DNA from: a virus
Strand: one strand, 5' to 3'
Virus record (IMG/VR): IMGVR_UViG_3300029481_000019
Length of the DNA: 38,965 bases
The notes under the pieces are model-generated. The model saw only the letters and a list, made by a program, of their open reading frames with translations, was not told where the DNA came from and did no database searches. Made by a program: the position numbers and the translations under genes. This document shows positions 1 to 38,965 of this stretch, piece by piece (within the stretch, counting starts at the first letter, position 1; each line of letters begins with the position of its first letter).

Positions 1-2442
1 ACTGCCGAAATAGTTCTGTTTCTTCTTGCCGTCCCAATCATCGTAATTCGTTGCGCCAGAGTATGCACTGAAAGGCTCCGCATACATCATCTCAGACCCG
101 GCAGGGCAATAGATCTCCATGGCGACAGGCCTATGGAAACCTTTACCTGCGGCAGCACCGGTCGACACGAATGACTGGATGCGGTTCGACATGCCGACGA
201 GTGATTTGAGCTCATCGGTACTCATACCCTCCAATTCCGACGCGCTTGTGCCGAAGAACGACTCCATGGCGTTGTAGTCGCATCCGCGCACGACCCATGC
301 GTCGTGGTCGTACGTCGACTTCTCGATAAGCGATGTCATGTTGCGGATTGCCGAGCCCTTGCCTTCGTAATCGATCCAAACGTCGCCTGGGCCAACGTAG
401 AACTTCTTCTCCCACCCTGTGCCGGATTTGCTGTACGGCTTGCGGAAGCCAGACAACGGTCGATTCCACGCACCGGAGGAGGCAGTATAGCCGTAGATGC
501 CCTTGCGCTCTGCTGCGGTTGCCTCACGCCAGGCCTTGCCGCTTACACCTCGGAAATGCTCATCGGCCTCCTCCGGTGAAGTGAACCTCCATGCATTAGC
601 CTTGCGCTCCTCGCTGAAAGCCGAATCTTCGACGAGACCTAAGTCGACCATCTGCTTGTGGATCGACTGACGCTTGAGCCTCAACGCAGACATCTTGTCG
701 ATATATACCTTATACGCCTGGCCTTGCTTGTCAAAATCTTCGACATCGTCGATGTACTTCTGCAATAACTCCGCCACTGCCGGGTTATTGTTTGCCGTGA
801 GTTTCTCATTGAAATACTCGAGCTTCTTGGGTATCGCCTCTTTCTTCGCGTCCCAATCGGCGAGTGTCACGGGGTCTTTCCAAATGCCCGAATACGTCTT
901 ATCTGAACTCTTCATGAGCTCTTTCAGCACGTCGATCTCGTTATCGACATCCTTCAGTTGGCTGTCGAGTGCATTCGCGAGCTTCTGCTCTTTCGTCAGC
1001 TTCTCGGCTTTCCATTCCTCGTAACTCATGCCGCCGAGTTTGTTGGCACGCTCGACCTCGTCATACTCCACATCGCCAATAACGGGCACTAGCGTACAAC
1101 GGCAATTGTAGACCTCAGAGGCAGGGCCGTCAGGGTCACCGGGGTACTTCAGCCCGTTGCTGAACTCGGCATCGAGCTTGACTACCTCGCCGTCAAGGTG
1201 GCGGTGGCTGCCACGTGTGCGCGAGTCGAGTGCCGCCAACCATTGCTTTTCAACATCGATGCCCATACCGGCAGCGCGCTCGTAGCCCTTGAGCTTGCCG
1301 AGCGAATGCGCGCTCGTCATGGCGGTACGCGCTGCCTTCATTGCTGCACGCTGGTCCATGGCGGCGATACCGGCGATCGACGTGGCGAGCTGTGGGATCG
1401 TCTGCCCCTGCAGCACCGCCTGCGTCACCGCAGACGTGACGTGGCGGCTGTTCCATGCCGTGTCTTTCGCCTTATCGAATGCCGCCTGCGGGAGCAGGTC
1501 AGGCTCATTCGCGACGAGCTCCATGACGGTGTTCTTGTTATACAGCGTGAACGACGTATTCGCCTTCGCGCCGTGCTCGATCTCGTATGTCGCGAAGTTC
1601 ATGCCTTCCGCATACACGCCTGCCGGCACCTGGTTGACATACGCCATCGCCATCTTGTCGGCGGCGGTGAGGTCTTGGGTCAACGCCTGCTTAAGTGCCT
1701 TGAGCTGGTCGTTGTGCAACGCCTGGTCCTTGCGCCAGGCCTTGTACGCCTTCGCGTCCTTCTTGCCAGCGGCGACATCAGCTTGCCATTTCGCGTCATC
1801 GGCTGCGAACTCCTTGAGTGAGGCCTCGATGCGGGAGGTCATGCCGTCGACCGCATCGGCGTAGGTAAGCTGCAGTTTTTCCTGCAGCTCCTGTGCCTGC
1901 TTCTCGAGTAATTTGGCCTGGGTGTCCTCCTGCGCTTTCCCCGCCTTCGCTGCGAGCTTCTTGCCCGCCTTGCCCGCGCCGTCTTTCGACTTGTAGCCGT
2001 TCTTGAAAGTGCCGTCGGGCATCATGTACCCATAAGTGCCGTCGGTGAACGTGTTGACGGTATAGCCGCCCTTGTCCTCACTCTTCAAGACCTGAGGGCC
2101 TTTCGGCTCTGTGGCCGTGAGCTTGGTTGCTGCCTTCTTGGCGCCGTCTTTAGACTTATAGCCCTCCTTGTGCTTACCGCCGTCAGTCATGTAGCCGTAA
2201 GTGCCGTCTGAATACGTGTCGATCTGAAAGCCGTCAAACTGTTGTGTCTTGACCACAGTCGAATCGACCGGGGTGTCGTCTTCGACGAGCTCATACCCAC
2301 CGAATTCAAGCGCCGCCTTCTGCGCCTTGAGGATGTCCGGGTATACCGCGTGCGACACATAGCCTGCCGACGTGATGTATTGGTACCCGCCGCCGGCCTC
2401 CAATATACCGATCTCGAAGACCGAATGGATCTTTTTCGACAT
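1..2442 (-). CDS. MuF-like minor head protein (SPP1 gp7 / Mu F family) fused to a C-terminal ADP-ribosyltransferase toxin domain. This is the N-terminal and central part of the gene; it runs off the window start and resumes at 38721-38965 across the circular junction.
   Basis: ATG at 2442 is 3 nt downstream of the portal stop. The frame stays open to position 1 and the ORF track reports no ORF only because the stop lies outside the window. The translation contains the Mu-F signature (SRTRGSHRHLDGEVVKLD...EVYNCRCTLVPV). The distal part has ART-like motifs (YGYTASSGAWNRPLSG, VVRG, FVSTG). The N-terminus holds two ~45-aa repeats (DGTYGYM...GYKSKDGAKKA). Confidence 0.8.
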   Translation of the reverse strand, partial: MSKKIHSVFEIGILEAGGGYQYITSAGYVSHAVYPDILKAQKAALEFGGYELVEDDTPVDSTVVKTQQFDGFQIDTYSDGTYGYMTDGGKHKEGYKSKDGAKKAATKLTATEPKGPQVLKSEDKGGYTVNTFTDGTYGYMMPDGTFKNGYKSKDGAGKAGKKLAAKAGKAQEDTQAKLLEKQAQELQEKLQLTYADAVDGMTSRIEASLKEFAADDAKWQADVAAGKKDAKAYKAWRKDQALHNDQLKALKQALTQDLTAADKMAMAYVNQVPAGVYAEGMNFATYEIEHGAKANTSFTLYNKNTVMELVANEPDLLPQAAFDKAKDTAWNSRHVTSAVTQAVLQGQTIPQLATSIAGIAAMDQRAAMKAARTAMTSAHSLGKLKGYERAAGMGIDVEKQWLAALDSRTRGSHRHLDGEVVKLDAEFSNGLKYPGDPDGPASEVYNCRCTLVPVIGDVEYDEVERANKLGGMSYEEWKAEKLTKEQKLANALDSQLKDVDNEIDVLKELMKSSDKTYSGIWKDPVTLADWDAKKEAIPKKLEYFNEKLTANNNPAVAELLQKYIDDVEDFDKQGQAYKVYIDKMSALRLKRQSIHKQMVDLGLVEDSAFSEERKANAWRFTSPEEADEHFRGVSGKAWREATAAERKGIYGYTASSGAWNRPLSGFRKPYSKSGTGWEKKFYVGPGDVWIDYEGKGSAIRNMTSLIEKSTYDHDAWVVRGCDYNAMESFFGTSASELEGMSTDELKSLVGMSNRIQSFVSTGAAAGKGFHRPVAMEIYCPAGSEMMYAEPFSAYSGATNYDDWDGKKKQNYFGS

Positions 2443-2445
2443 GCG

Positions 2446-6643: not shown

Positions 6644-6818
6644 CTTCTTTCGGTTCGCACTTCTTGATGAATATGATCACAGAGTCGCAATGCGCACAAC
6701 GGTATTTGACTTCGCGCATGAGCGGCTTGCCCTTCTCGCAGACGAACACACGGCCGTTGGGGATATGCCCTGCGTGAGGGTCGATCTGCCTACCGCAGTT
6801 GGGGCATTTAATGGGCAT
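6630..6818 (-). CDS. zinc-ribbon small protein
   Basis: 62 aa, CPNCG...CAHCD motifs, GAAGG RBS. Confidence 0.5.
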   Translation of the reverse strand: MPIKCPNCGRQIDPHAGHIPNGRVFVCEKGKPLMREVKYRCAHCDSVIIFIKKCEPKEVDHG

Positions 6819-7155
6819 GGTTCACTACCTTCCTTCCGCACTGGGGGCAGAAGTTCCATGTGCCGCTCACGTGGTAGTGCTCCTCGTCCTCGACCCTGCA
6901 TCCGCAGACCGAGCACTCGAAGCCGTTGTCACAGGCTCCCATTTCGTTCTCGTCGTAGACGTTCTCGCACTCGCCGCGGTCGATTAGGTCGGCAATACGC
7001 TCGAACACGTCGTTCATCTCGTGGTATCCGATGTCGGGTTCCATTACCGTCTCGTCCAGCAGTTCATAGAACTCTTCTTTGTAGCGGACGCGGTTCATGT
7101 AGGATAGGTGACGCAGATTCTCTACAGTCTCGCAGCGCTCATCATTGGTAATCAT
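6808..7155 (-). CDS. zinc-ribbon hypothetical protein (paralog of 7152-7490)
   Basis: Starts MITNDERCETVENLRHL and shares MIT-DE, RIADLIDR, CxxCG and CPxCG blocks with the upstream gene. ATGA overlap with the upstream stop. Confidence 0.5.
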   Translation of the reverse strand: MITNDERCETVENLRHLSYMNRVRYKEEFYELLDETVMEPDIGYHEMNDVFERIADLIDRGECENVYDENEMGACDNGFECSVCGCRVEDEEHYHVSGTWNFCPQCGRKVVNHAH

Positions 7156-7490
7156 TCGTCCACCACCTCTGCACGGCACTCCGGGCAATATGTGAAATCT
7201 TCCGGGTCGCAGTCTGAATCGCCATATGTAAATGCTTTATACCCACACTGGCTGCAATGGAACGACCTGTAGTCATTCGAGAGGTTTCGGCATGTCGGGT
7301 TGTCGTGTCGGTCGATCAAGTCTGCGAGACGTTGAAATATGCTGCCGTCGAGGCCGACGGTGGCATCGCGGATCATGTTGAGTACAGATGCCTCATGTGC
7401 AATCGTGCGGTCGCAGTCCTCATCGTCGACGAGGTGGTCGAGTTGACGCAAAGTATGCACTACTCGGCGGCGCTTTTCATCAGTAATCAT
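7152..7490 (-). CDS. zinc-ribbon hypothetical protein (paralog of 6808-7155)
   Basis: 112 aa, GAGGAG RBS and C-terminal CSQCG / CPECR zinc-ribbon motifs. Confidence 0.5.
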   Translation of the reverse strand: MITDEKRRRVVHTLRQLDHLVDDEDCDRTIAHEASVLNMIRDATVGLDGSIFQRLADLIDRHDNPTCRNLSNDYRSFHCSQCGYKAFTYGDSDCDPEDFTYCPECRAEVVDE

Positions 7491-7894
7491 TTACTTTCAC
7501 TCCTCAGCTCATTAATGCGAGACGCGATGTCTTTACACATATTGACAGTACAATCCCCTGCGTAGAGCTTGCATTCGGCGCACTTCTTACCGATATTGTG
7601 CGCGTAGGCACACACTGGGTCTTCGAGGTCGGGAGAATCTCCGCAAACCTCAACCGCGTGCAGGTCTTCGTCTAGCTTCTCCCAGCTATCGGGCTCGGCG
7701 AGATGCATGTCGCTTACTGCGAACAACGAAGTGCCGACTGTGAATTTCACTCGCCATATACCAGTGCAAGTATCGGTACGAATGACATACATGAATGACT
7801 TTACGAGGTTCTTAAAGCCGTACCTGTCGTACAGCACTTTGGTATCAAGCGGAATTTCTCGCCCGTCGGCATCTTTAGGCGACTCGATGTTCAT
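7487..7894 (-). CDS. hypothetical protein with a Cys-rich C-terminus (paralog of 7894-8295)
   Basis: Shares IE-PKD-GREIPLDT, PDSWE-L and ASRI-LR blocks with its neighbour. TGATG coupling. Confidence 0.5.
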   Translation of the reverse strand: MNIESPKDADGREIPLDTKVLYDRYGFKNLVKSFMYVIRTDTCTGIWRVKFTVGTSLFAVSDMHLAEPDSWEKLDEDLHAVEVCGDSPDLEDPVCAYAHNIGKKCAECKLYAGDCTVNMCKDIASRINELRSESK

Positions 7895-8295
7895 CAGTCC
7901 TCACCCCTCAGGTTGCGGATGCGTGACGCCACGTCTCGCATCACTGCGTCTGCGCAGGCGTCGTCGCGCGCCGGGCAAGACATGCAATCATCGCCTAATT
8001 CGTGAAAGTAGTGACAGGGGCCGTATGTTTGCCCATCATCGAACGCAGTCAAGTCTTTTTCCAGCTGTTCCCAGCTATCGGGCGGGGTGAGGTACATGAG
8101 CTTTGGGTCGAGCCGTCTAAACATGTCTGTGGTCGCACGCCACTGGCCCGCCACGCTGTCGCTCGTGTCGAAGTCAGTCGTGTAGATCCACCGCGTGATG
8201 TTGTAGGCATTGCCGCTGGCGCCGAATAACTTTGTGGTATCCAGTGGAATCTCGCGGCCCTCCACATCTTTAGGTAACTCGATAGTCATTTGCAT
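7894..8295 (-). CDS. hypothetical protein with a Cys-rich C-terminus (paralog of 7487-7894)
   Basis: 133-aa tandem paralog. Confidence 0.5.
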   Translation of the reverse strand: MQMTIELPKDVEGREIPLDTTKLFGASGNAYNITRWIYTTDFDTSDSVAGQWRATTDMFRRLDPKLMYLTPPDSWEQLEKDLTAFDDGQTYGPCHYFHELGDDCMSCPARDDACADAVMRDVASRIRNLRGED

Positions 8296-8353: not shown

Positions 8354-8656
8354 TCAGAGCCTGCCTCGGCCCTCGTTCCGCTCGTCCATGCGTCGGATGG
8401 CGGCGTCGACCTCGCCTTGCGTGGCGCCGACTGCCGCCAATACGTTGGCGACTGCCTGAACTGTGTCCATGCACTCGTCGATGAGGCAATTGCGCATGTC
8501 TACCCAATCCTGCTTGAACGTCGTGGGGCGCATGCTATCCAACTCCTGCCATGCACCGAAGACCTCGGCTGCCTCCTCTAACGGCTTGAGCATTTGATGC
8601 TTGTCGTCATTCACCTTGTTGAAAACACGCGTGTTCAACAGATACCCGTCAATCAT
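8354..8656 (-). CDS. MazG-like all-alpha nucleoside-triphosphate pyrophosphohydrolase (small phage type)
   Basis: 100 aa with PLEEAAEVFGAW ... DTVQAVANVL ... RRMDERNEGRG, resembling the EExxE/D MazG core. Paralog of 9674-9958. Confidence 0.5.
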   Translation of the reverse strand: MIDGYLLNTRVFNKVNDDKHQMLKPLEEAAEVFGAWQELDSMRPTTFKQDWVDMRNCLIDECMDTVQAVANVLAAVGATQGEVDAAIRRMDERNEGRGRL

Positions 8657-8668
8657 CGTTTATCCTTC

Positions 8669-9496
8669 CTAGATACATTGATCGATTACGGCTTTGCCGC
8701 GTAACTGGTCGACCCACTTCGGCGGGATTGCCCCAAAACCGTAATACACGCCCGCGATAGCACCCGCGACAGCAGCCGTAGTATCGGTGTCGTCGCCTAA
8801 ATTGACGGCTGCGAGCACACAATCAGTATATGAGAACGTATTTAAAAAACACCAGAGCGCGGCCTCGAGCGTATGCTCGCAGTAGCCGTCGTTTTTGACT
8901 GCCTCGACAGGCCTCGATGCGATGTACCCGTATCTATGCCAGAGGTCGCCCTTCGCCGGCGTGCCGACATTGCGGATAGTCCGCAACATATCACACAGCG
9001 TTACACATGACCACTCGGCCACTGGGTGCGCATGCGTAATTGCCGAGACATCGCGTATATCATAGGGTTCGATGGGGTCGAGCATGGCGAGCGGTGCCGT
9101 CCTCATGAGCGAGCCGTTGCCGCAGTCGTCATATGACTTAGCAGGCACGCCTGTCGAAATAGCCCTCTTGCATGTCACGCCGACATCGAATACACGCCCA
9201 TCACACGTGTAGTCACCGTGCTCCAGCCATTGACGGAACCTGTAGGCGATGTCAGCCGTGTCGATGATTCCGAGCCGCTTGATGCTCGCGCATATGCACA
9301 AGGCCATCGACGTGTCGTCAGACCACGTGCCGGCATACTGCCCGTGCGTGCCGCCGTCGACCATGCCGGTGCATTCGAACGTGCCTCGCTCACGAAACTC
9401 ATATGGCACGCCGAGGGCGTCGCCGACTGCGAGCCCGTATATGCACGAGCGCATACGGTCCCTGTCGTATGATACGCAGTTATATATTGTCGACAT
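8669..9496 (-). CDS. ADP-ribosylglycohydrolase (ARH/DraG family)
   Basis: Starts MSTIYNCVSYD with a GAAGGAGGTG RBS. The N-terminal GLAVGDALGVPYEF motif and size (~276 aa) fit the ARH family. Confidence 0.8.
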   Translation of the reverse strand: MSTIYNCVSYDRDRMRSCIYGLAVGDALGVPYEFRERGTFECTGMVDGGTHGQYAGTWSDDTSMALCICASIKRLGIIDTADIAYRFRQWLEHGDYTCDGRVFDVGVTCKRAISTGVPAKSYDDCGNGSLMRTAPLAMLDPIEPYDIRDVSAITHAHPVAEWSCVTLCDMLRTIRNVGTPAKGDLWHRYGYIASRPVEAVKNDGYCEHTLEAALWCFLNTFSYTDCVLAAVNLGDDTDTTAAVAGAIAGVYYGFGAIPPKWVDQLRGKAVIDQCI

Positions 9497-9674
9497 AACG
9501 CACCTCCTTCGCCTCGTACTCGCCGACAGTACCGTCGGCGAACTCGACGAGCCCGACGGGTTTCTGGTTGTTCCCGAGGAAACCGCCACGCTGGAACCAC
9601 CCGATCAAGCTGCCGCCGTGCCCGTGCACAGTGACAGGCCTCCGCTCCATGGCCACGATCACTTCGACCTGCAT
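9480..9674 (-). CDS. small hypothetical protein
   Basis: 64-aa ORF translationally coupled (TGATG) to the upstream MazG-like gene. Confidence 0.4.
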   Translation of the reverse strand: MQVEVIVAMERRPVTVHGHGGSLIGWFQRGGFLGNNQKPVGLVEFADGTVGEYEAKEVRYVDNI

Positions 9675-9958
9675 CAATACCTACCCCTCTTCATGTTTCG
9701 TTTCTCGCAACGTGCCATCAGCTCCGACATATCATCGATGCCGACCGATGCAACACAGTTGACGACTGCTTGGATCACATCTGCGGCCTTGTCGAGCATC
9801 TTGTCGCGCGCCTTCGCCGAATACCTCTGGTTGTCACGGCGCTGTATCCAGAAACGCCATGCGACGAAGAACTCCGCCGCTTCCTCGAGCGGCCTCGTGA
9901 ATTGCTGCCGATCGTCTGCGTAGACATATTTGAACGGCTTCACATCACCGATTAGCAT
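9674..9958 (-). CDS. MazG-like all-alpha NTP pyrophosphohydrolase (paralog of 8354-8656)
   Basis: 94 aa with PLEEAAEFFVAW ... DVIQAVVNCV ... KRNMKRGRY. Confidence 0.5.
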   Translation of the reverse strand: MLIGDVKPFKYVYADDRQQFTRPLEEAAEFFVAWRFWIQRRDNQRYSAKARDKMLDKAADVIQAVVNCVASVGIDDMSELMARCEKRNMKRGRY

Positions 9959-10719: not shown

Positions 10720-11004
10720 TCAGTGATCATTTTGCTGCAGATCCTCTCCACACCACGGGCAATATCGCGGGATCGTCTCTATCTCGTCCCAATTCGTGAT
10801 GTACGTGTCGTCGTGCTCGAAGTGCGACACGCGGAAGACGAGGTCGCACCGGTGACAATGGACGGCATCGACAGGGTTGCATTCGCTTATAATCGCGACA
10901 TCGTCCAAATCAGTCATTTTGCGTGGCTTCCACTTCTGATGTGACGGAGTCGCCCCACACGTCGGGCAGTCGACACCCCTTATGAATCTGACTCTCCTAG
11001 GCAT
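10720..11004 (-). CDS. zinc-ribbon protein (CPTCG ... CHRCD ... CPWCG)
   Basis: 94 aa starting MPRRVRF with a GGAGG RBS. The track ORF 10720-11295 is longer only through an alternative-frame N-extension. Confidence 0.5.
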   Translation of the reverse strand: MPRRVRFIRGVDCPTCGATPSHQKWKPRKMTDLDDVAIISECNPVDAVHCHRCDLVFRVSHFEHDDTYITNWDEIETIPRYCPWCGEDLQQNDH

Positions 11005-11839
11005 CGGTAACCTCCGCCCCACACTCGATATCATCGACATGGTCGAGGTCGACGACCACCTCGCCGACGACTTCACCGTCGACTTCGACATCGGCGCCCT
11101 CATGCTGTAGGCGCTTCTCGACTTCGGCCATGAACTCAACGGCCTTCTCGGCATACACGCCGACCGTGGGCTCGCCGGCGAACAGGCGCTCGTCATAGCA
11201 GCGCTGCGCACGGCGGTTGCCGATCTTGAACAGGTACTCGAACGTGAGCTCAGCCGCGCCGGCCATGTACAGGTCGCCGGTGAAGACGATCTCATGCTTG
11301 TCGACTTCCATGCCTACACCGAAGTATGCCGACACGGTATCGGCCAAGTCGTAACGCCAGTGCTTGCGGCTGCCGACTGTCGTGTGCTCAGAGCGGGTAC
11401 CCTCGTCGCCGTTGGCCGCCCTGGCCTCGCGTGCGGCGTCATACACCTGCACGGCCTTGTCGATCAGCTGGAACTCATCAATGCCCTTCGTGCGGCGGTC
11501 ACGGAGGTTGGCGGTGATCGCCTGGCGGAAGCCGGCGTAATCGACAGGTGCGTCCTCGATGATCACGTCGCCGGTCTCGCCGTACTTGAACTTCTTGCCA
11601 CCGTCTTCGGGCTCGCCCTCGGCCTTGGTGAGATCGATATGCACGACCTGGCCGTCGAGGCAGAACATGTCGCGGAAGTCCTTCGTGACCGTGAGGGCAT
11701 CGTCCTTCTTGGCGATGACGCCCTTGCGGTAGAGCGACGGGAACGGGTTCGCCGGCATCTCGACTAGCACGCCCTTCTTGTCGATCGCGCACTCGTTGAT
11801 GAAACCGAGCTCTTTCTCGGTGAACGTTACCTCTGCCAT
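10997..11839 (-). CDS. hypothetical protein, 280 aa
   Basis: Starts MAEVTFTEKE with an AAAGGAAAC RBS. No family recognised. Confidence 0.55.
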   Translation of the reverse strand: MAEVTFTEKELGFINECAIDKKGVLVEMPANPFPSLYRKGVIAKKDDALTVTKDFRDMFCLDGQVVHIDLTKAEGEPEDGGKKFKYGETGDVIIEDAPVDYAGFRQAITANLRDRRTKGIDEFQLIDKAVQVYDAAREARAANGDEGTRSEHTTVGSRKHWRYDLADTVSAYFGVGMEVDKHEIVFTGDLYMAGAAELTFEYLFKIGNRRAQRCYDERLFAGEPTVGVYAEKAVEFMAEVEKRLQHEGADVEVDGEVVGEVVVDLDHVDDIECGAEVTDA

Positions 11840-11854
11840 GGTGTTTCCTTTCAT

Positions 11855-12569: not shown

Positions 12570-12995
12570 CTATGCACTTGTGACGACATCGACACCGGCG
12601 TTGTCTATCATGCGCGTGCACACGGGGCATGGTGAGATCTCATCAGCCGAGATGCGCTCGCCTGTCTCGAAGTCGACGCCAGCCAAGTACAGCGTCGCGC
12701 CGATCATCTCAGAGCGTGAGGCCGACAACATGGCGTTCATCTCGGCGTGTACCGCCGGGCATGAGCCGTAATCGCCGTCGTTATGCCCGTGCCCGCAGCG
12801 ATGGCATATACCTGTATCGATGCAGTTGACATCACCGCGCGCGGCGCCGTTATAGCCTGTCGCGATGATCTCATCATTGGCCACGATTACGGCGCCGTAG
12901 CGACGGCGCAGGCACGTCGACCTGGCCGCCACCGCGAGTGCGATGTCGAGGTAATACTCGGCTTTACTAGGCCTCTCCGGTCGATCCGAAAGCAC
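12570..12995 (-). CDS. dCMP deaminase (zinc-dependent CMP/dCMP deaminase family)
   Basis: HAEMNA and PCPVC zinc-ligand motifs. Probable GTG start with GAGGAGAGGGG RBS, overlapping the dUTPase 3' end; the track ORF extends to 13028. Confidence 0.75.
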   Translation of the reverse strand: MLSDRPERPSKAEYYLDIALAVAARSTCLRRRYGAVIVANDEIIATGYNGAARGDVNCIDTGICHRCGHGHNDGDYGSCPAVHAEMNAMLSASRSEMIGATLYLAGVDFETGERISADEISPCPVCTRMIDNAGVDVVTSA

Positions 12996-13386
12996 CGTCG
13001 CCCCTCTCCTCGCCCAACTGCTCGACAAAGTCGGCCAACACGATCGGCATGACGACGAGCTGGCCGATGCGGGTGCCGCCGGGGACCTTCTTCAGTTTGT
13101 CGGTTAGGTTGGTGACGATCGCATGCACCTCACCGGTATAGCCGGAGTCGATCGGCGGCAGCTCGCAGACGAGGCCTTCGAGGCTCATGCCCGATCTGGG
13201 GAACACGCAGGCCATGACGCCGTCGGGCAGCTCGAGCGAGAAGCCTAGCGGGATGCGACGGGTCTCGTGCGGCTTCAGGGTCTCACCGAAAGTGGTGTAG
13301 ACGTCGGCGCCGGCGTCGTTATAATGCGCACGGACCGGGAGCTTGATGTCGGTATCCTCGGCGATACGGTTGATTTTAATCTTCAT
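12967..13386 (-). CDS. dut: dUTPase (trimeric dUTP pyrophosphatase family)
   Basis: All five dUTPase motifs are present: AGADV, PRSG, PPIDSGYTGEV, RIGQLV, RGDGAFGSTG. Confidence 0.85.
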   Translation of the reverse strand: MKIKINRIAEDTDIKLPVRAHYNDAGADVYTTFGETLKPHETRRIPLGFSLELPDGVMACVFPRSGMSLEGLVCELPPIDSGYTGEVHAIVTNLTDKLKKVPGGTRIGQLVVMPIVLADFVEQLGEERGDGAFGSTGEA

Positions 13387-14194
13387 CCTTTACCTCCGTG
13401 ACGATGGCGTTATTAAGGCAATATTTAGTGACAGTGTGCCTCGGCGTATCGGACGACATGGTGATGCGTTCGATCTCCGAGATATGGGTCAAAAACTTCT
13501 CGATGTCGAACTTGAGGTGCAGCGCCGCCTGCTTGCAGCACCAGACTTCGCGGACGCGGTCGATGTCCTTCTCATATGCATGGAGCGACACAGTGAAATG
13601 CGTATACTTGCCGTAGCCGACGCCGAGCTCGTTCGCGATGTGCTTCTGCAGCTCCGTGAAGAACACGACATCGTAGGGCGTGCCGAGCCATACGTCGTTG
13701 GAACGCATGATGCCGGTGCAGTCGAGCTTGCCCCCGCGGAGCTCGAACACGAGTGCGATAGTGCAGATCTCGTCTTTTGTCTCGAATCGCTCTGGGTTCG
13801 GCACATTGAAATTGATGACTGCGCGTCGTGAATACGGGTCACGCTTGAGCGTGTCGATGACCTGCGCGACCTGGTCGAAGCCATAGCGGTTGAACACGAT
13901 AGCGCCGTACGCAGATCGGTTCGTCACGCCATCGTCGCTGATGTGCTTCCAAAATGACGAGAACTTCGAGATGAACTCGACATCTTCGCGGCCGGTGAAA
14001 TACCATGCGAGCTCGCCCAACATATACGAAAGCGAGTAACCCATGCGGGCCGTCGCGATGTTGTCGGTGATGTCGAGCAGCGTGAAACCGCTGTTGAGCA
14101 GTTCTTTGGTGCCAGCTACCTCCTGGCCCTGCACCGATATTTTGCCGCAGAGTTGGCGGTAGATGTCGTTCATCGACTTGCCTACAACATGCAT
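13376..14194 (-). CDS. thymidylate-synthase-family pyrimidine C5-modifying enzyme, predicted dCMP-specific (dCMP hydroxymethylase or dCMP methyltransferase rather than a canonical ThyA)
   Basis: It aligns by eye to ThyA: ELAWYFTG ~ ELLWFLQG, DPYSRRAVINFNVPNP ~ DPDSRRIIVSAWN, catalytic Cys in EICTIA ~ APCHAF, and RSNDVWLGTPYDVVFF ~ RSCDVFLGLPFNIASY. The residue equivalent to ThyA Asn177 is Asp, the substitution that switches specificity from dUMP to dCMP (as in T4 gp42). His147 is also replaced. Confidence 0.7.
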   Translation of the reverse strand: MHVVGKSMNDIYRQLCGKISVQGQEVAGTKELLNSGFTLLDITDNIATARMGYSLSYMLGELAWYFTGREDVEFISKFSSFWKHISDDGVTNRSAYGAIVFNRYGFDQVAQVIDTLKRDPYSRRAVINFNVPNPERFETKDEICTIALVFELRGGKLDCTGIMRSNDVWLGTPYDVVFFTELQKHIANELGVGYGKYTHFTVSLHAYEKDIDRVREVWCCKQAALHLKFDIEKFLTHISEIERITMSSDTPRHTVTKYCLNNAIVTEVKDED

Positions 14195-14658
14195 TTCAGC
14201 ACCTCTTTCATGGCAGTCGCCGGGTTGTTGTCTTCGAGCACAATCGCGGCGTCGTGTGCCTCAGCCCACTCCTGGTAACGCTTGTAGATCTCGACGATGT
14301 TCGGGCAGACGACATCGGCGTACTCGTCGCCGCGTTCGTTCAGGCGGCCGATGACGACATGGAGCGGGGGCAAAAGCACGATGATCGGGATACGCGCGAA
14401 CTCGCAGAACTCCGTCAATTCCTCCGCATTGTCATTATTGATACGCGGCTCGCGGCCGAACAGGTCGGAATACACTTGCTCCGACACCCAGCAGCGGTCG
14501 ATAATGACACCGTCGCATGCGAGCTTCTGCAGATACTCCGGCATAGACTGGCCGCCGTTGGCGGTCATTTTCAGAATGTTCATGTCGAGTGCTCCGGCCA
14601 ATGACTTCGCGAGCGTGGACTTGCCGGCGCCGTCAGGGCCTTCGATGATGATGGGCAT
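14182..14658 (-). CDS. deoxynucleoside monophosphate kinase (thymidylate-kinase-like P-loop kinase)
   Basis: MPIIIEGPDGAGKSTLAKSL P-loop, ~158 aa, adjacent to the TS-family gene and analogous in position to T4 gp1. Confidence 0.6.
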   Translation of the reverse strand: MPIIIEGPDGAGKSTLAKSLAGALDMNILKMTANGGQSMPEYLQKLACDGVIIDRCWVSEQVYSDLFGREPRINNDNAEELTEFCEFARIPIIVLLPPLHVVIGRLNERGDEYADVVCPNIVEIYKRYQEWAEAHDAAIVLEDNNPATAMKEVLKCML

Positions 14659-14661
14659 GGT

Positions 14662-16545
14662 TTACTCCTTTACGAAAATACGTACACGTTTGCCGTTGAC
14701 ACGGCAGGTCTTGCTTGTCAGGCCATAGTGCTTGTTGGCCTGGCGGGTGAACTCGTTTTGACCAAGCGGCTTCAAGTTGTTCCTGATAGCCCAGGCCATA
14801 TAGTAGTCGTATACCAGCGCCGTCGACTCGTTCACCACCTCGTCGACGGGCGTGTCTGCGAAGTAACCGAGGACGGGGTTGTTGGCGACGTGGTAGTCCT
14901 CGATCTCCTTGACCACGACCTCCGGCATCGTAAACGCGCGGTTTGCCAAGACACGCTCGAGCCCCTTGAGGCCGATGTTGATCAGGTGGCTCATGACTTC
15001 TGGCGAGTGGAGCTTGTACTTGATGTATGGGTCGAAGTCCGGGTCGTCTTTCGAAAATGTCGCCTTGAACGGCACGAGCACGATGCGGTCGAGCACGGCA
15101 CCGGTCTTGTCCCTGATGCGTGGCATCGAATTCGCCGAGAACAGCAGTTTTGCGTAACTCGAGAAATCAAACGGGTCTTGACCCTTCCGCTCGGCGTTGA
15201 CGCGGTCACCGCTTACTAGCTTCTTGAAAATCGCCGGGTTTGCGATGAACTCGTCGCCGATGTCGTCGCCTATATTGGCCAGCTTGCCGAACAGCTCTGC
15301 CGTCTTGAACCTCTCGCCGAGCTCAGCCAGGTCGAGGGCCGACGTGTTGCTGTCGCCTAGCAATGTCTTGAGCATGTCCAGATACGTCGACTTGCCGTTC
15401 GCCTTGTCGCCGACCAAGATGAAACTCTTGCGGAGCTCGTTACGCCTATAGAACAGATAACCGATGACCTCCTCCAGCAATGAATATATCCCGTCGTCAC
15501 CGCAGGCGAGGCGACGCAGCGTCTTATCGGTGAACTCCGACCAAATCGTCGGGTCATACTCCCACGGGATGCGGTTCGTGATCACGAACTCCGGCGAGAA
15601 CGGCATGAGTTCCCCCGTCTTGAGGTCATACACGCCGTTGGCGAAAGCGATGTAATCGGCATCGGCCGCAGGTGCGTCGTCTTGGATGAGCACGTCGAGG
15701 TAGTTGAGTACCTCGGTGCGCTTGGCCTTCGACAACATGGGCAAATGCTTGATCATCGCGTTCTCGATAAGCAGATTGCCCGACACATAGACGCCGTCGC
15801 GGTATACGTGGAGCTGATGGCCGATCTTGATGATACGGTGCTCGTTCTTGAGGTACTCGGCGAACTTGTCGAACAGGAACGTGCCTTTGTTGAAAAACAC
15901 ATCTTCGGCAAAAGCATCGTCGCGGTAGACAACGTCCAGTTCTTGCTGCTCCATAGGCTTTTCGAACATGTACCGGTTGATGACGGCCAGGGTCTCACGC
16001 GCCTCGTCTTTCGTGAAACCCTCCGACTGCAGCGTCAAAATATAATTGAATAACGCTTGGTTGCGGCCGTCGCCCTCTTCCATCTCGCCAAACTCTGGTG
16101 TGTACTGCACGGGCCTGAGCCAGCACGGTAACTCGTCATAACTTTCGTCCGGCTCGATGTCATAGATCACGTCGCGCTCATGGCCGTCGACTTTCAAGCT
16201 ACCATATGTGGCTTTCGACCCGACTTTGATGTCTGCGTCGATGCCGACGGCCAGGCGTGCGTGCGTCTTGCATTTCATGCCACGGGGGTAGCCGACGAAA
16301 TAGAAATGCTTGCCGCGTGTCGTCGCGACGACCTTGCATGCAATCTGCTCGGCCTCGATGATGTCCATCAGCTTCTCGCTCTGCGCCATGTCGTCGACAT
16401 CGATGAAAATCGTCTCAGGCGCCAACACACCACCGTAACCGTCGAGTTTGCGTGCTTGGGCCAATGTGAGGTATCGGCCGTCCTTCAACTTCTGCGCACA
16501 CTTCTTGCCATTGAGCTTCACGTATCCGATAAATAGACGGTCCAT
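14662..16545 (-). CDS. bifunctional primase-polymerase / D5-type superfamily-3 helicase (probable start MDRLFIGY at the TGATG overlap with the PolB stop; an alternative GTG start at 16620 is possible)
   Basis: N-terminal prim-pol-like region (FIDVDD, GKHFYFV) and a C-terminal SF3/D5 helicase with Walker A VGDKANGKST. Confidence 0.8.
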   Translation of the reverse strand: MDRLFIGYVKLNGKKCAQKLKDGRYLTLAQARKLDGYGGVLAPETIFIDVDDMAQSEKLMDIIEAEQIACKVVATTRGKHFYFVGYPRGMKCKTHARLAVGIDADIKVGSKATYGSLKVDGHERDVIYDIEPDESYDELPCWLRPVQYTPEFGEMEEGDGRNQALFNYILTLQSEGFTKDEARETLAVINRYMFEKPMEQQELDVVYRDDAFAEDVFFNKGTFLFDKFAEYLKNEHRIIKIGHQLHVYRDGVYVSGNLLIENAMIKHLPMLSKAKRTEVLNYLDVLIQDDAPAADADYIAFANGVYDLKTGELMPFSPEFVITNRIPWEYDPTIWSEFTDKTLRRLACGDDGIYSLLEEVIGYLFYRRNELRKSFILVGDKANGKSTYLDMLKTLLGDSNTSALDLAELGERFKTAELFGKLANIGDDIGDEFIANPAIFKKLVSGDRVNAERKGQDPFDFSSYAKLLFSANSMPRIRDKTGAVLDRIVLVPFKATFSKDDPDFDPYIKYKLHSPEVMSHLINIGLKGLERVLANRAFTMPEVVVKEIEDYHVANNPVLGYFADTPVDEVVNESTALVYDYYMAWAIRNNLKPLGQNEFTRQANKHYGLTSKTCRVNGKRVRIFVKE

Positions 16546-18269
16546 CACATCACCCCAAACTGCGCTAACCGTATTTTCGCCAACTGTATATACCAAGCCT
16601 TGTCCAAATGGCTCGGGCACTTCTTACCGTGCACGTCGCCGTTGTCGATAAACGAGTGCTCACTCGTGTTGCCGAATTTCTCAGGCTTGGCCTTACCGGC
16701 CTTGACACGCCCGACCATGCCGTCCGACGCACGTGTGGATGCGAATACACGGAAGCACCTATCAGTGAGCCGCTCATGCCCGTGCACGCCGTACTTGTAT
16801 TTACCGGACACCTTCACCACGCGCTGGTAATCGATCAGATCATCATCGCCCATGATGGTGTCTTCGACGGGCACGCCGTGTACCATGTACTCGACGAGCG
16901 CCTTGTTGACGACGGCGAGGTCGTAGTCGAGCGGCCCCAGCTTCTTGACGTACGCGCCTTTCGTCTTCATCGACCCATCGGCCGCCACGAGGACGTAGTT
17001 ATTGACGTCCTTCTGGTAAACACGGGTAAACTCATCGAATTCCAAGCCCATACCGGTACGGTGCTCCCACTCATAGGCCACGTCGTCGACACGGTCGTAA
17101 AACGCGTCTGGCCCGCCATCGAAATCGTCAGGCATGCGGATGAGCACGCCATCGGTGTTGCTTTGGATGATCTCGGCACCCACATCGCGAACGAGCTTGT
17201 GCATGAGGTCGATGAGCATGAGCTGGCCGTTGACGCAAACCATATTGGCTTGCCGCGGGTCGTAGAGTGCATTGAACTTGTCTTTGCTGGCGCCGTAGGT
17301 GCCGTTGACGACGAGTTTCAATGCCTTCTGGCGTGGGTCTTTCGCATGCTTCAACTCGATACGGTGGTCTCGAATGCCCTTGAACTTCGACGGGTCATGC
17401 ACGTTGCGTGACAACAATTCGTGTGCAATCATCTCAGCTGGGTAATAACTCTCGACGTCGACGTTGATGAAATAACCCTCGCCGGCGTACTGCGCAATCG
17501 CGCCATGCAAGCCTCCCCATGCACACTTGTGCGGGCAGCCCGCGATGTCGAAATCGAGCGTCGCTGAGTAATCTTGATTCGCCGGGTCGAGGTACCACGA
17601 ACGGATGAAATCATACGGACCGAGGTCGAGGCACGGCAACGGCATGATGTCGAACTCGTCGTCGCGCGGTCGCGCAGGCCGCTCGGCACCGAGGATGATC
17701 GCCGTGAGTTGCGCATCGGTCTTACCGAGGTACACCAGCGGCAAGTCGAACATTTTGAGCAGATCCATACGGGCGTCGAACTCGCTTTTGCGCTGCATGA
17801 ATACCTCGATGGTCTGCTCGACATCGTGGCGGCAATATTTCACGGTCTCGGCGATCTCAGCCTCGGTCAATTTGCGATCGATGTCGAACGGCACCGTCGT
17901 CTCGCAAATATCGTTGCCGAGGTACGCCTCGTGAGTCTTGAGGCCCCTGTCTGTACGCGGGTGGAATACATCATAGTTGACCATGTAAACCTTGCGCAAC
18001 AAACTCGAATACTGCCAACCCTTGTGGCCTTCGGCGATGATGAAATCATTAATCGCCTTCGGGTTGAAACCGCACAAAATGCCTTTGAAAATGAATTGGT
18101 CATAATGGAGGTTGTTGTAACCTACCCAAATCTCACGCTTGTGCCCTTCGTAGAGCGCGGTGAGCGCGTCGGCATCGTTGATGATGACGCGCTCATCGTG
18201 AGTGACGGGGTTGATGACTACGACCATCCAGTCGTGTTTGAAAACTTCGAAGTCGTAGAAATTGAGCAT
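16545..18269 (-). CDS. family-B DNA polymerase, unusually small (574 aa) with 3'-5' exonuclease
   Basis: Exo I is DFE (FYDFEVF) and Exo III is YCRHD. Pol motif A is DVESYYPAEM (DxxSLYPS-like), motif B is KLVVNGTYG (KxxxNSxYG), motif C is SNTDGV (DTDS-like). Confidence 0.8.
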   Translation of the reverse strand: MLNFYDFEVFKHDWMVVVINPVTHDERVIINDADALTALYEGHKREIWVGYNNLHYDQFIFKGILCGFNPKAINDFIIAEGHKGWQYSSLLRKVYMVNYDVFHPRTDRGLKTHEAYLGNDICETTVPFDIDRKLTEAEIAETVKYCRHDVEQTIEVFMQRKSEFDARMDLLKMFDLPLVYLGKTDAQLTAIILGAERPARPRDDEFDIMPLPCLDLGPYDFIRSWYLDPANQDYSATLDFDIAGCPHKCAWGGLHGAIAQYAGEGYFINVDVESYYPAEMIAHELLSRNVHDPSKFKGIRDHRIELKHAKDPRQKALKLVVNGTYGASKDKFNALYDPRQANMVCVNGQLMLIDLMHKLVRDVGAEIIQSNTDGVLIRMPDDFDGGPDAFYDRVDDVAYEWEHRTGMGLEFDEFTRVYQKDVNNYVLVAADGSMKTKGAYVKKLGPLDYDLAVVNKALVEYMVHGVPVEDTIMGDDDLIDYQRVVKVSGKYKYGVHGHERLTDRCFRVFASTRASDGMVGRVKAGKAKPEKFGNTSEHSFIDNGDVHGKKCPSHLDKAWYIQLAKIRLAQFGVM

Positions 18270-24104: not shown

Positions 24105-24737
24105 ATGTCTATGTCTGAGTATTCACTTTCCGACATCGCGGCCGCTTCCGGCGAGTCCGGCTTCGGCGGCAACAATGCATGGTGGGTGATCATCCTCTTC
24201 GCGATGATTTTCGGTTGGGGCGGCAACGGCTTCGGTGGCAACCGCAATGCCGGCGAGCAACCCGTAACTGAGGCCGGTCTGTGCAACGCCATGAATTTCA
24301 ACGACCTGGCGAACCAGGTCGGGCGCGTGAACGACATGATGCAAACACAGTTCATGCAGACCAGCCAGGGCCTCGCGTCTGTCGGCTACGAGAACCTCCG
24401 CAACTTCGCGCAGACGCAGGACACCATCAAGGACGGCAACTACTCGCTGTCGTCCCAGCTCGCAAACTGCTGCTGTACCACCCAGCGCGGTATCGACTCC
24501 GTTAATTACAACGGCGCGATCAACACCGCTGCAATCCAGCAGACTGTGACCGAGCAGACGCAGAAGGTCCTCGACACCATCACCGGCAACCGCATGGCCG
24601 ACATGCAGAACCAGATCAACCAACTCCAGCTGTCCCAGGCGATGTGTGGCGTGGTACGCTACCCCAACACCTTCGCCTACAACGCCGGCCCGAGCCCGTT
24701 CTGCGGTAATGGCTGCTGCGGTACGGCAAACATCTAA
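24105..24737 (+). CDS. opposite-strand membrane protein (moron), Gly/Gln/Asn-rich with a Cys-rich C-terminus
   Basis: AAAGGA RBS 7 nt before the ATG. One TM helix (AWWVIILFAMIFGWGG) flanked by GFGGN repeats and a Q/N-rich body. C-terminal NCCCTTQRG and CGNGCCGTANI. Followed by a convergent hairpin terminator. Confidence 0.55.
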   Translation: MSMSEYSLSDIAAASGESGFGGNNAWWVIILFAMIFGWGGNGFGGNRNAGEQPVTEAGLCNAMNFNDLANQVGRVNDMMQTQFMQTSQGLASVGYENLRNFAQTQDTIKDGNYSLSSQLANCCCTTQRGIDSVNYNGAINTAAIQQTVTEQTQKVLDTITGNRMADMQNQINQLQLSQAMCGVVRYPNTFAYNAGPSPFCGNGCCGTANI

Positions 24738-38720: not shown

Positions 38721-38965
38721 TTACTTGTATTTGCTCTTCGAGCCGGTCCACTCTTTGGGATCCTGCTGGAACTTATCGTAACCCTGCTCGGGGTGCAGCT
38801 CCAACACGACATGCATCTTGCCGTCATCGCCTTTGTACACGTCGGTCGCGGTGTAGTAACCGCCGCGCTGCAAGATCATCTCAAACTCACTGCCGAAATA
38901 GTTCTGTTTCTTCTTGCCGTCCCAATCATCGTAATTCGTTGCGCCAGAGTATGCACTGAAAGGCT
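38721..38965 (-). CDS. C-terminal end of the same MuF-ART gene (ART catalytic region, stop TAA near 38721-38723).
   Basis: Reverse translation of the window end is continuous with reverse translation of the window start (...KKKQNYFGS|EFEMILQRGGYYTATDVYKGDDGKMHVVLELHPEQGYDKFQQDPKEWTGSKSKYK*). It contains the E-x-E-[IV]-L-L-x-R-G motif typical of C2/C3/iota/VIP2-type ADP-ribosyltransferases. The total gene is about 869 aa. Confidence 0.75.
   Translation of the reverse strand, partial: PFSAYSGATNYDDWDGKKKQNYFGSEFEMILQRGGYYTATDVYKGDDGKMHVVLELHPEQGYDKFQQDPKEWTGSKSKYK
38889..38965. repeat. 77-bp exact duplicate of window positions 1-77 (assembly overlap marking a circular, complete genome)
   Basis: String identity between the first and last 77 nt. 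Confidence 0.85.

Follow-up and report, generated by a model that had tools for sequence, protein, structure and literature searches.

What base is made by a phage whose thymidylate synthase (TS) homolog carries Asp at the position of E. coli ThyA Asn177? The question is raised by IMG/VR virus record IMGVR_UViG_3300029481_000019, a stretch of 38,965 nucleotides that was analysed at its full length and is called the window here. Between 12.6 and 14.7 kb, it holds four contiguous minus-strand genes encoding, in order, a nucleotide kinase, the TS homolog, a dUTPase, and a deoxycytidine monophosphate (dCMP) deaminase. We propose that the cassette is probably a minimal pre-replicative pathway to 5-hydroxymethylcytosine (5hmC), and we expect, a little more guardedly, that the virion DNA carries substantial 5hmC.

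The four genes lie where the initial annotation had placed them, and all overlap. The first (14182..14658, minus strand) encodes a P-loop nucleotide kinase of 158 aa that matches phrog_761, 'thymidylate kinase' (2.3e-15), and has weak Pfam P-loop/TMPK matches. It is followed on the same strand by the TS-family enzyme of 272 aa (13376..14194; PF00303, 1.3e-24), a trimeric dUTPase of 139 aa (12967..13386; PF00692, 5.7e-21; phrog_135, 1.2e-35), and a dCMP deaminase-family enzyme with a maximal open reading frame (ORF) of 152 aa (12570..13028; PF00383, 7.5e-18; phrog_174, 6e-41). The kinase/TS and TS/dUTPase overlaps are 11–13 nt, and that between dUTPase and deaminase is 29–62 nt, depending on the deaminase start chosen. 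The probable start of the deaminase is GTG 12995, preceded by the ribosome-binding site GGAGAGG; translation from there yields 141 aa, the length called in relatives. The ratios of nonsynonymous to synonymous substitution (dN/dS) against the window are 0.18 for the kinase, 0.13 for TS, 0.04 for the dUTPase, and 0.11 for the deaminase.

The active site of the TS homolog carries most of the argument. The homolog was aligned with enzymes of known product, each from an annotated record, as follows: E. coli ThyA (dTMP), T4 gp42 (5-hydroxymethyl-dCMP), RB69 gp48 (5-hydroxy-dCMP), Xp12 TS (5-methyl-dCMP), and SPO1 gp29 and a ViI-like enzyme (5-hydroxymethyl-dUMP). Window residues Cys144 (nt 13763–13765), Glu61, Tyr96, Arg164, His205, and Tyr207 occupy the invariant columns of ThyA C146, E58, Y94, R166, H207, and Y209, and Asp167 aligns with D169. 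Asp141 (nt 13772–13774) aligns with ThyA L143, Thr145 with H147, and Asp175 (nt 13670–13672) with N177. The initial annotation had claimed that the catalytic Cys is kept, that Asp stands at the ThyA-177 position, and that His147 is replaced; the alignments to E. coli ThyA bear out all three. The wider comparison that it had called for, with T4 gp42, Xp12, SPO1, and ThyA, likewise puts Asp, not Asn, at 177.

In ThyA numbering, the window reads E58, Y94, D143, C146, T147, M165, R166, D169, D177, H207, and Y209, and T4 gp42 is the same throughout. The other enzymes in the alignment depart from this signature, each in its own way. ThyA has L143/H147/Q165/N177. Xp12 shares Asp177 and has N143/P147/L165. 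SPO1 gp29 and the ViI-like enzyme share Asp143 and have N147/N165/N177. RB69 gp48 shares Asp177, an acidic residue at 143, Thr147, and Met165, and has N169. According to the rules of Lee et al. 2026 (PMC13326640), N177D indicates a dCMP substrate, L143D/E a hydroxymethyl product, and D169N a 5-hydroxy product; the acidic residue that replaces Leu143 admits water, so that the product is hydroxymethyl rather than methyl (PMC13326640). The window signature fits these rules, and a 5-hydroxymethyl-dCMP synthase is therefore predicted. The enzyme very probably acts on dCMP at C5, and there is a good likelihood that its product is the 5-hydroxymethyl one.

Comparisons beyond the active site point away from ThyA as well. 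The best PDB sequence match (phmmer) is MilA CMP 5-hydroxymethylase, at 1.1e-25 versus 3e-14 for the best ThyA. The homolog misses every NCBIfam ThyA equivalog cut-off, scoring 30–74 bits where the cut-offs are 108–576. In alignment with E. coli ThyA, the C-terminal closure segment is absent, and the C-terminus of the window protein is non-homologous.

The signature is not peculiar to the window. An exhaustive HMMER search of 1.84 billion cluster representatives gave 150 proteins at E<=1e-30 (50%-cluster representatives), and 141 of these have the same six-residue core, D-C-T-M-D-D. Thus, the window TS sits within a large coherent clade. One of the 150 (49% identical) has a TET-associated glycosyltransferase (TAGT) domain fused to the TS domain, a fusion that ties the clade to a hydroxyl-bearing base. 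A TS homolog of the same kind is found in Agathobaculum phage AB434P2, a cultured phage of gut Clostridia (locus L003:3838-4500). It is annotated 'deoxyuridylate hydroxymethyltransferase' but has the dCMP-type signature (Asp177, Asp143, Thr147, Met165), and on these residues the annotation is probably wrong.

Cultured phages with related cassettes point in the same direction. Among 50,697 phage records, the best tblastn matches are Enterococcus phages VPE25, VFW, nattely, and 9183 and Lactobacillus phage ATCCB, at 41–55% identity. The gene order in VPE25 is a hypothetical 171-aa ORF, TS, dUTPase, and beta-glucosyltransferase; in ATCCB, it is a hypothetical ORF, TS, beta-glucosyltransferase, and UDP-galactopyranose mutase. 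The window dUTPase is 55% identical to the VPE25 dUTPase that follows TS. The DNA of VPE25 and VFW resists bisulfite conversion, EcoRI, and MspI, and is cut by the hmC-dependent enzyme PvuRts1I (Duerkop et al. 2016, PMC4999554). Experimentally, these properties point to glycosylated cytosine, with glucose as the most likely sugar (PMC4999554).

The kinase is linked to TS by position and by fusion. It is homologous to the ORF that immediately precedes TS in VPE25 (2e-11) and in ATCCB (4e-11), and of the 150 nearest TS representatives, 22 have a domain homologous to it fused to the N- or C-terminus of TS. Such fusions link the kinase with what TS makes, and we predict that it is a 5-hydroxymethyl-dCMP (dNMP) kinase. 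The initial annotation had called it a counterpart of T4 gp1. As an analog this stands, with a gp1-like working suggested by the context; as a homolog it does not, for similarity to gp1 is absent (BLASTP E=39). Rather, the kinase belongs to a TMPK/dNK-like family, and its best PDB match is SPbeta YorR (2axp, 3e-8). Two allelic types of the kinase occur among the relatives, one about 63–65% and the other 80–94% identical to that of the window; both accompany an intact TS (L019, L022, L025, L028, L030, and L037).

The relatives also provide a natural experiment. In IMG/VR, 33 genomes of 34–40 kb encode a TS that is 85–98% identical to the window TS. Unexpectedly, 24 of the 120 TS cluster representatives listed (P0001–P0120) carry R, Y, F, or G in place of the catalytic Cys, and one such cluster, P0009 (C144Y), has 130 members. 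Judged from the amino-acid changes, many of these Cys differences look like A-to-G or T-to-C transitions. We scored 41 informative loci, including seven that were fetched for their Cys-lesion alleles (loci L049–L055 listed). A TS was counted as intact if E61, W64, C144, and T145 were intact, and as a lesion if a superfamily-invariant residue was changed. All 30 loci with an intact TS have an intact deaminase, whereas in all 11 with a TS lesion the deaminase is lost or degraded (Fisher p=3e-10). The lesions are W64Q, W64L, C144R, C144Y, and C144F, and the C144R genomes L049 and L053 carry E61G and T145A in addition. Deaminase remnants of 62 and 87 aa are left in two lesion genomes, and in L049, where TS is catalytically dead, the kinase is deleted too. 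In the TS tree, the lesion alleles are spread over four or more separate clades, and in the polymerase tree they are scattered among intact genomes. Thus, TS has been lost repeatedly and not in a single event.

The genomes with a damaged TS differ in one further respect. A C5-cytosine DNA methyltransferase (PF00145, 5e-48) is present, complete or in part, in 5 of the 6 lesion loci with coverage and in none of 25 intact ones (p=3.5e-5). The copies in deaminase-less relatives with a damaged TS are at L032:14736-15686, L036:14141-15091, and L055:11538-12488. A C5-cytosine methyltransferase requires an unsubstituted C5. That such enzymes are confined to TS-dead genomes is predicted if the intact phages make 5hmC (or 5-methylcytosine), and is not predicted if the cassette makes ordinary dTMP. 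In L032 and L036, the last conserved motif of the methyltransferase is in another frame and is joined to an HNH endonuclease and a helix-turn-helix domain; here the gene is possibly a split or interrupted one. A 191-aa ORF of L013 (14579-15154) resembles a Dam-type methyltransferase by eye, and a Pfam scan of it gave no match.

The co-loss bears on the two remaining cassette enzymes. The deaminase has the zinc motifs HAE and PCxxC, seen as VHAEMNA and SPCPVC when it is aligned with the enzymes of S. mutans and T4. These dCMP deaminases are its best PDB matches; its best matches in cultured phages are from mycobacteriophages, and it groups with ordinary dCMP deaminases. No gene but the deaminase is bound strictly to TS activity, and we infer that it serves the modified state, either by draining unmodified dC nucleotides towards dUMP or by acting on the TS product. 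A draining deaminase would be harmful once dCTP is needed again. The dUTPase, in contrast, is intact in all 11 lesion genomes, and its role is therefore independent of TS activity. All five of its canonical motifs can be read in the translation (AGADV, PRSG, IDSGYTGE, RIGQLVV, and RGDGAFGSTG).

Does the phage also destroy dCTP, as T4 does with gp56? The initial annotation had suggested this role for two small all-alpha proteins, labeled MazG-like, of 100 aa (8354..8656, minus strand) and 94 aa (9674..9958, minus strand). The two are paralogs, 40% identical, and the second is highly conserved. The label is unconfirmed, and the role is disfavored. Neither protein has a match in Pfam, PHROG, or NCBIfam, whether to MazG, to PRA-PH, to dimeric dUTPases, or to any other family, nor a PDB sequence match; a PDB profile search returned nothing relevant, hhalign against T4 gp56 gave a probability of 2.9%, and structural comparison with the MazG fold was weak and non-significant. 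The ExxE...ExxD spacing fits in 8354–8656, whereas the second acidic motif is degenerate (DKAAD) in 9674–9958, and one nr record names a homolog 'triphosphate pyrophosphohydrolase'. The 8354–8656 protein may be a MazG-superfamily NTP pyrophosphatase, and it is probably not dedicated to the pathway. Eight of the 11 TS-lesion loci keep the 9674–9958 protein at 89–98% identity (of the remaining three, most stop short of that position), and its paralog is kept in five of those loci. A dCTPase would harm a phage that uses dCTP, and retention in TS-dead genomes therefore argues against a gp56-like role. The same reasoning disfavors a dUTPase that doubles as a dCTPase. The paralogs evolve at different rates: 8354–8656 is fast (dN/dS 0.57), with changes clustered in a loop at about residues 38–57, and 9674–9958 is nearly frozen (0.05).

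What the window lacks is also informative. Pfam and PHROG scans of essentially every ORF found no second TS, ThyX, dihydrofolate reductase (DHFR), glycosyltransferase, carbamoyltransferase, integrase, or DNA methyltransferase. The initial annotation was right that a separate thyA or thyX is missing, as there is one TS-family gene and no ThyX, and also that no glycosyltransferase is evident. A hidden glycosyltransferase was considered and rejected, every ORF having been scanned without a match. The only sizeable conserved protein near the cassette that has no assigned function is the 285-aa product of 10997–11854 (weak DUF7168 match; AlphaFold2 pLDDT 44). Since the genome encodes no transferase for a sugar or another group, plain 5hmC is predicted, barring an unrecognized decorating enzyme, and the 'hypermodification' of the initial annotation is not supported. 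The absence of DHFR supports the hydroxymethyl assignment, as a methylating TS would favor having one; in Xp12, DHFR is encoded beside TS. Palindrome avoidance in the window is not strong, with no 4-mer palindrome below 0.69 of expectation; this is compatible with protection by modification and is not diagnostic of it.

The prediction of C5-modified cytosine thus agrees with the gp42 signature, with MilA as the best solved match, with the VPE25/VFW relatives, and with the kinase-TS and glycosyltransferase-TS fusions. Where the initial annotation had offered 5hmC or 5-methylcytosine as options, these comparisons favor the former over the latter.

The proposed pathway would run as follows. Cys144 of the TS homolog would attack C6 of dCMP, with Asp175 reading the N3/N4 face of the cytosine, and a methylene group would be transferred to dCMP from 5,10-methylene-tetrahydrofolate. 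Asp141 sits at the site's mouth, and with it there the exocyclic methylene would be hydrated rather than reduced, giving 5-hydroxymethyl-dCMP. The kinase, translationally coupled just upstream of TS, would convert this to 5-hydroxymethyl-dCDP, a host nucleoside diphosphate kinase would make the triphosphate, and the phage replisome would use that in place of dCTP. The dUTPase would exclude dUTP from DNA and yield dUMP. The deaminase would drain unmodified dC nucleotides towards dUMP, which host ThyA would convert to dTMP. The resulting 5hmC would protect against classical restriction enzymes and block C5 methylation.

Several points weigh against this proposal. Every step of the pathway rests on sequence: the genes present, the active-site residues, the homologies, the fusions, and the co-loss are observed, whereas substrate, product, degree of cytosine replacement, and direction of flux through the deaminase are deduced. 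The window TS resembles T4 gp42 only distantly (23%, pairwise E 3e-10), less than it does the Xp12 5-methyl-dCMP synthase (26%, 7e-22); overall similarity thus favors Xp12, and the choice of hydroxymethyl over methyl depends on a few residues and on the relatives. Naked 5hmC is unusual in natural phages, yet no glycosyltransferase was found here. With no dCTPase or other means of dCTP exclusion identified, replacement of cytosine may be partial. The co-loss is supportive and not decisive, as the sample is small, phylogenetically structured, and includes lesion genomes that were partly chosen for their lesions. Moreover, an ordinary dTMP-synthesis cassette would also show co-loss of TS, deaminase, and kinase.

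How do other readings fare against these data? The one that survives best, although we consider it unlikely, is a pathway like that of Xp12, in which TS would make 5-methyl-dCMP and the deaminase would turn part of the 5-methyl-dC nucleotides into dT nucleotides. Such a scheme would account for the missing thyA and for the strict coupling of TS and deaminase. It has in its favor the Asp177 common to the window and Xp12 enzymes, the higher pairwise similarity to Xp12 TS than to gp42, the TS-deaminase adjacency seen in Xp12 as well, and the experimental demonstration of TS-linked deaminases that prefer 5-methyl-dCTP (bioRxiv 10.1101/2024.12.05.627091); the TS/deaminase co-loss and the methyltransferase anticorrelation fit it equally well. 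The residues do not. Asp143 of the window is found in every aligned hydroxymethylase, where Xp12 has Asn, and positions 147/165 are T/M, as in T4 gp42, and not P/L. Further, the nearest relatives adjoin beta-glucosyltransferases or have the TAGT fusion, and such enzymes need a hydroxyl; the DHFR that lies beside TS in Xp12 has no counterpart in the window; and the window deaminase is closest to ordinary phage dCMP deaminases and barely related to that of Xp12, the match being marginal (6e-4).

A double modification is quite improbable. Here, the deaminase would act on 5-hydroxymethyl-dC nucleotides, so that 5-hydroxymethyluracil would replace part of the T, in addition to 5hmC for C. A deaminase that uses the TS product would account for the strict co-loss, and there is precedent: seven TS-associated virome deaminases gave 5-hydroxymethyl-dU in vivo when 5-hydroxymethyl-dC nucleotides were available, and mSCD-B5 deaminates 5-hydroxymethyl-dCTP (bioRxiv 10.1101/2024.12.05.627091). 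Those deaminases, however, accompany TS enzymes of the 5-methyl type (bioRxiv 10.1101/2024.12.05.627091). The window deaminase groups instead with conventional dCMP deaminases, including the mycobacteriophage ones, and genes for downstream processing of 5-hydroxymethyluracil are not present.

Very improbable, too, is an ordinary dTTP supply, in which deaminase and dUTPase would provide dUMP, a divergent TS dTMP, and a thymidylate kinase dTDP, with the DNA left unmodified. The gene set suits a dTMP pathway, databases label the proteins in this way (PHROG names), and co-loss of TS, deaminase, and kinase would be expected here too. But ThyA residues Asn177, His147, Gln165, and Leu143 are all replaced, in a manner seen only in the dCMP-acting hydroxymethylases, the NCBIfam ThyA cut-offs are missed widely, the closure segment is absent, and MilA, the top PDB match, hydroxymethylates CMP. 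Nor does a dTTP supply give a reason for methyltransferases being confined to genomes with TS lesions. Finally, a flavin-dependent 5-hydroxy-dCMP synthase like RB69 gp48, which would yield 5-hydroxycytosine and belongs to the same superfamily with the same Asp177, acidic 143, Thr147, and Met165, was rejected as extremely improbable, because Asp169 is retained in the window, in all 33 IMG/VR relatives, and in 141 of the 150 representatives, where D169N is diagnostic, and because genes for arabinose, sugar-nucleotide, and glycosyltransferase functions are not present.

Returning to the 5hmC pathway, the relatives suggest a broader, and tentative, proposal, which we consider possible but rather doubtful. 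It is that this abundant gut phage group is naturally polymorphic in its DNA chemistry and switches recurrently between 5hmC made before replication and 5-methylcytosine made after it. Most genomes would make unglycosylated 5hmC, with the deaminase, and not a dCTPase, draining dC. At least four lineages would have killed the hydroxymethylase independently, losing the deaminase each time and the kinase once, and several would have a C5-cytosine methyltransferase instead. Plausibly, the switch would be driven by alternating pressure from classical and from modification-dependent (type IV) host restriction.

The setting of the cassette is that of a complete phage genome. Nucleotides 17–59 are repeated in the final ~43 nt of the window (ends 1–59 / 38906–38965), which indicates a circular assembly, that is, a complete genome of ~38.9 kb cut inside a gene. 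The genome layout places the cassette (12.6–14.7 kb) between a small-gene block (6–12.5 kb) and the replication genes (14.7–22.1 kb: primase-helicase, DNA polymerase, single-stranded DNA-binding protein, exonuclease/annealing protein, and SNF2 helicase). Terminase and portal are at 2.4–5.7 kb, lysis genes at 25.5–27 kb, and tail and head genes at 27–38.6 kb. The DNA polymerase (16545–18269, minus strand; 574 aa) matches phrog_1252 (2e-159) and has no Pfam match. All real genes of the window are on the minus strand, with one plausible exception at 24105–24737, between the lysis and early regions, where the plus strand encodes a protein of 210 aa that is rich in Gly and Cys, shows an apparent membrane helix, and has no family match.

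The gene cut by the window ends (1–2445, minus strand, continuing at the window end) encodes a minor head protein, of which 815 aa are visible; relatives have versions of 867–871 aa. It combines a Mu F-like domain (PF04233, 7.9e-18) with a C-terminal ADP-ribosyltransferase toxin domain (PF03496, 2.3e-9). An ADP-ribosylglycohydrolase is encoded at 8669–9496 (minus strand; PF03747, 6e-58). It was rejected as a DNA-modification enzyme, the virion ADP-ribosyltransferase being its more natural partner; from the domains, the two look like a virion-delivered transferase paired with a reversing glycohydrolase, separate from the cassette. The accessory region from cassette to terminase varies among relatives (L046/L047:12668-12982 and L054:13055-13276 are among the loci listed). 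In some, a DUF4406 protein, nucleoside deoxyribosyltransferase-like, replaces the glycohydrolase, and one relative has a Lar restriction-alleviation protein. Two further tandem paralog pairs are present on the minus strand (7487–7894 / 7894–8295, and 6808–7188 / 7152–7490, the latter matching phrog_21525); the pairs vary in copy number and identity among relatives.

Where does the phage live? The samples of relatives that were traced look like human-gut metagenomes, namely several ENA gut assemblies and SRR413631, which we take to be of gut origin from its run series. About 450 homologs are present in a large protein collection, where a single 90% cluster comprises 1,041 members. A 12-kb megablast search against INPHARED phages gave no match, so a near-identical cultured phage was not found there. 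The initial annotation had assumed a Firmicutes host. However, two GTDB metagenome-assembled genomes (MAGs) of 'uncultured Collinsella sp.' (L056 and L057), which were binned independently, contain the phage as a free contig of 36.6 kb. In genome collections, these two bins, both Collinsella, were the only occurrences, and no integrase or prophage junction was found. They hint that the host is perhaps Collinsella, a genus of Actinomycetota, and not a Firmicute; in contrast, the window terminase most resembles the terminases of Clostridia phages.

Much of the chemistry is already established, and the initial annotation overstated its novelty. TS-family pyrimidine hydroxymethylases and the Asn-to-Asp switch are known, and the same module in siphoviruses of Gram-positive bacteria with glycosylated hmC was published in 2016 (PMC4999554). 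Co-localization of TS(N177D) and deaminase marks cytosine-modified virome contigs, 70% versus 6% (bioRxiv 10.1101/2024.12.05.627091; also PMC8670742), and TS(N177D), dCMP deaminase, and PRA-PH/MazG domains are statistically linked in such contigs, a link that is thus established as well (PMC8670742; bioRxiv 10.1101/2024.12.05.627091). Added here are a compact, transferase-free version in a gut phage group of very high abundance, Collinsella as a possible host, and natural variation among relatives, in which the pathway has been taken apart time and again.

If the proposal is true, a very common human-gut phage group, with one TS cluster of more than 1,000 database members, packages 5hmC DNA. 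The sensitivity of these phages to host restriction, and possibly to CRISPR-Cas, would change, and the modification would bias enzymatic library preparation from gut viromes, their bisulfite or EM-seq data, and their nanopore basecalling. The cassette would be a compact four-gene toolkit for 5hmC DNA, with a kinase of a family other than that of T4 gp1. The TS-dead, deaminase-less, methyltransferase-bearing relatives would serve as built-in negative controls and make a tractable case of switching in anti-restriction chemistry.

Compared with known systems, the cassette is closest in logic to T4, where gp42, the gp1 kinase, the gp56 dCTPase/dUTPase, and the cd deaminase likewise modify dCMP before replication and phosphorylate it, with deamination and dUTP hydrolysis alongside. 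The TS fold and the diagnostic residues of gp42 are those of the window TS. However, gp42 is only 23% identical, gp1 is unrelated to the window kinase, and the window dUTPase is trimeric and not of the gp56 type. The window, a 39-kb genome of siphovirus type with its four genes contiguous, also lacks the dCTPase, the alpha- and beta-glucosyltransferases, and the phage thymidylate synthase of T4. VPE25/VFW (Andrewesvirinae) and ATCCB offer the closest cultured homologs (TS 41–55%, dUTPase 55%, and kinase about 30%), with the same gene order and TS signature. They differ in genome size, 80–86 kb, and in having one or two glycosyltransferases, hence glycosylated 5hmC, and a cassette without a deaminase, whereas the window has a deaminase and no transferase.

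Single enzymes are matched elsewhere. MilA of mildiomycin biosynthesis (PDB 5b6d/5jp9) has, like the window TS, aligned Asp residues at 143 and 177 and a Cys-Thr catalytic pair, but it is a bacterial enzyme of secondary metabolism that prefers the ribonucleotide CMP and belongs to no DNA-precursor pathway. The TS of Xanthomonas phage Xp12 resembles that of the window in Asp177, in adjoining a dCMP-deaminase-family gene, and in the lack of a separate thyA; it differs in Asn143, Pro147, Leu165, a DHFR gene, a 5-methyl product, and a barely related deaminase. RB69 gp48 and DLP3 gp80 share Asp177, an acidic 143, Thr147, and Met165 but have D169N and are located in arabinosylation clusters (PMC13326640), whereas the window keeps Asp169. 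Lastly, SPO1 gp29 and the ViI-type enzymes are pyrimidine hydroxymethylases with Asp143 and with kinases and dUTPases alongside, but their Asn177 and Asn147/Asn165 go with a dUMP substrate and a 5-hydroxymethyluracil product.

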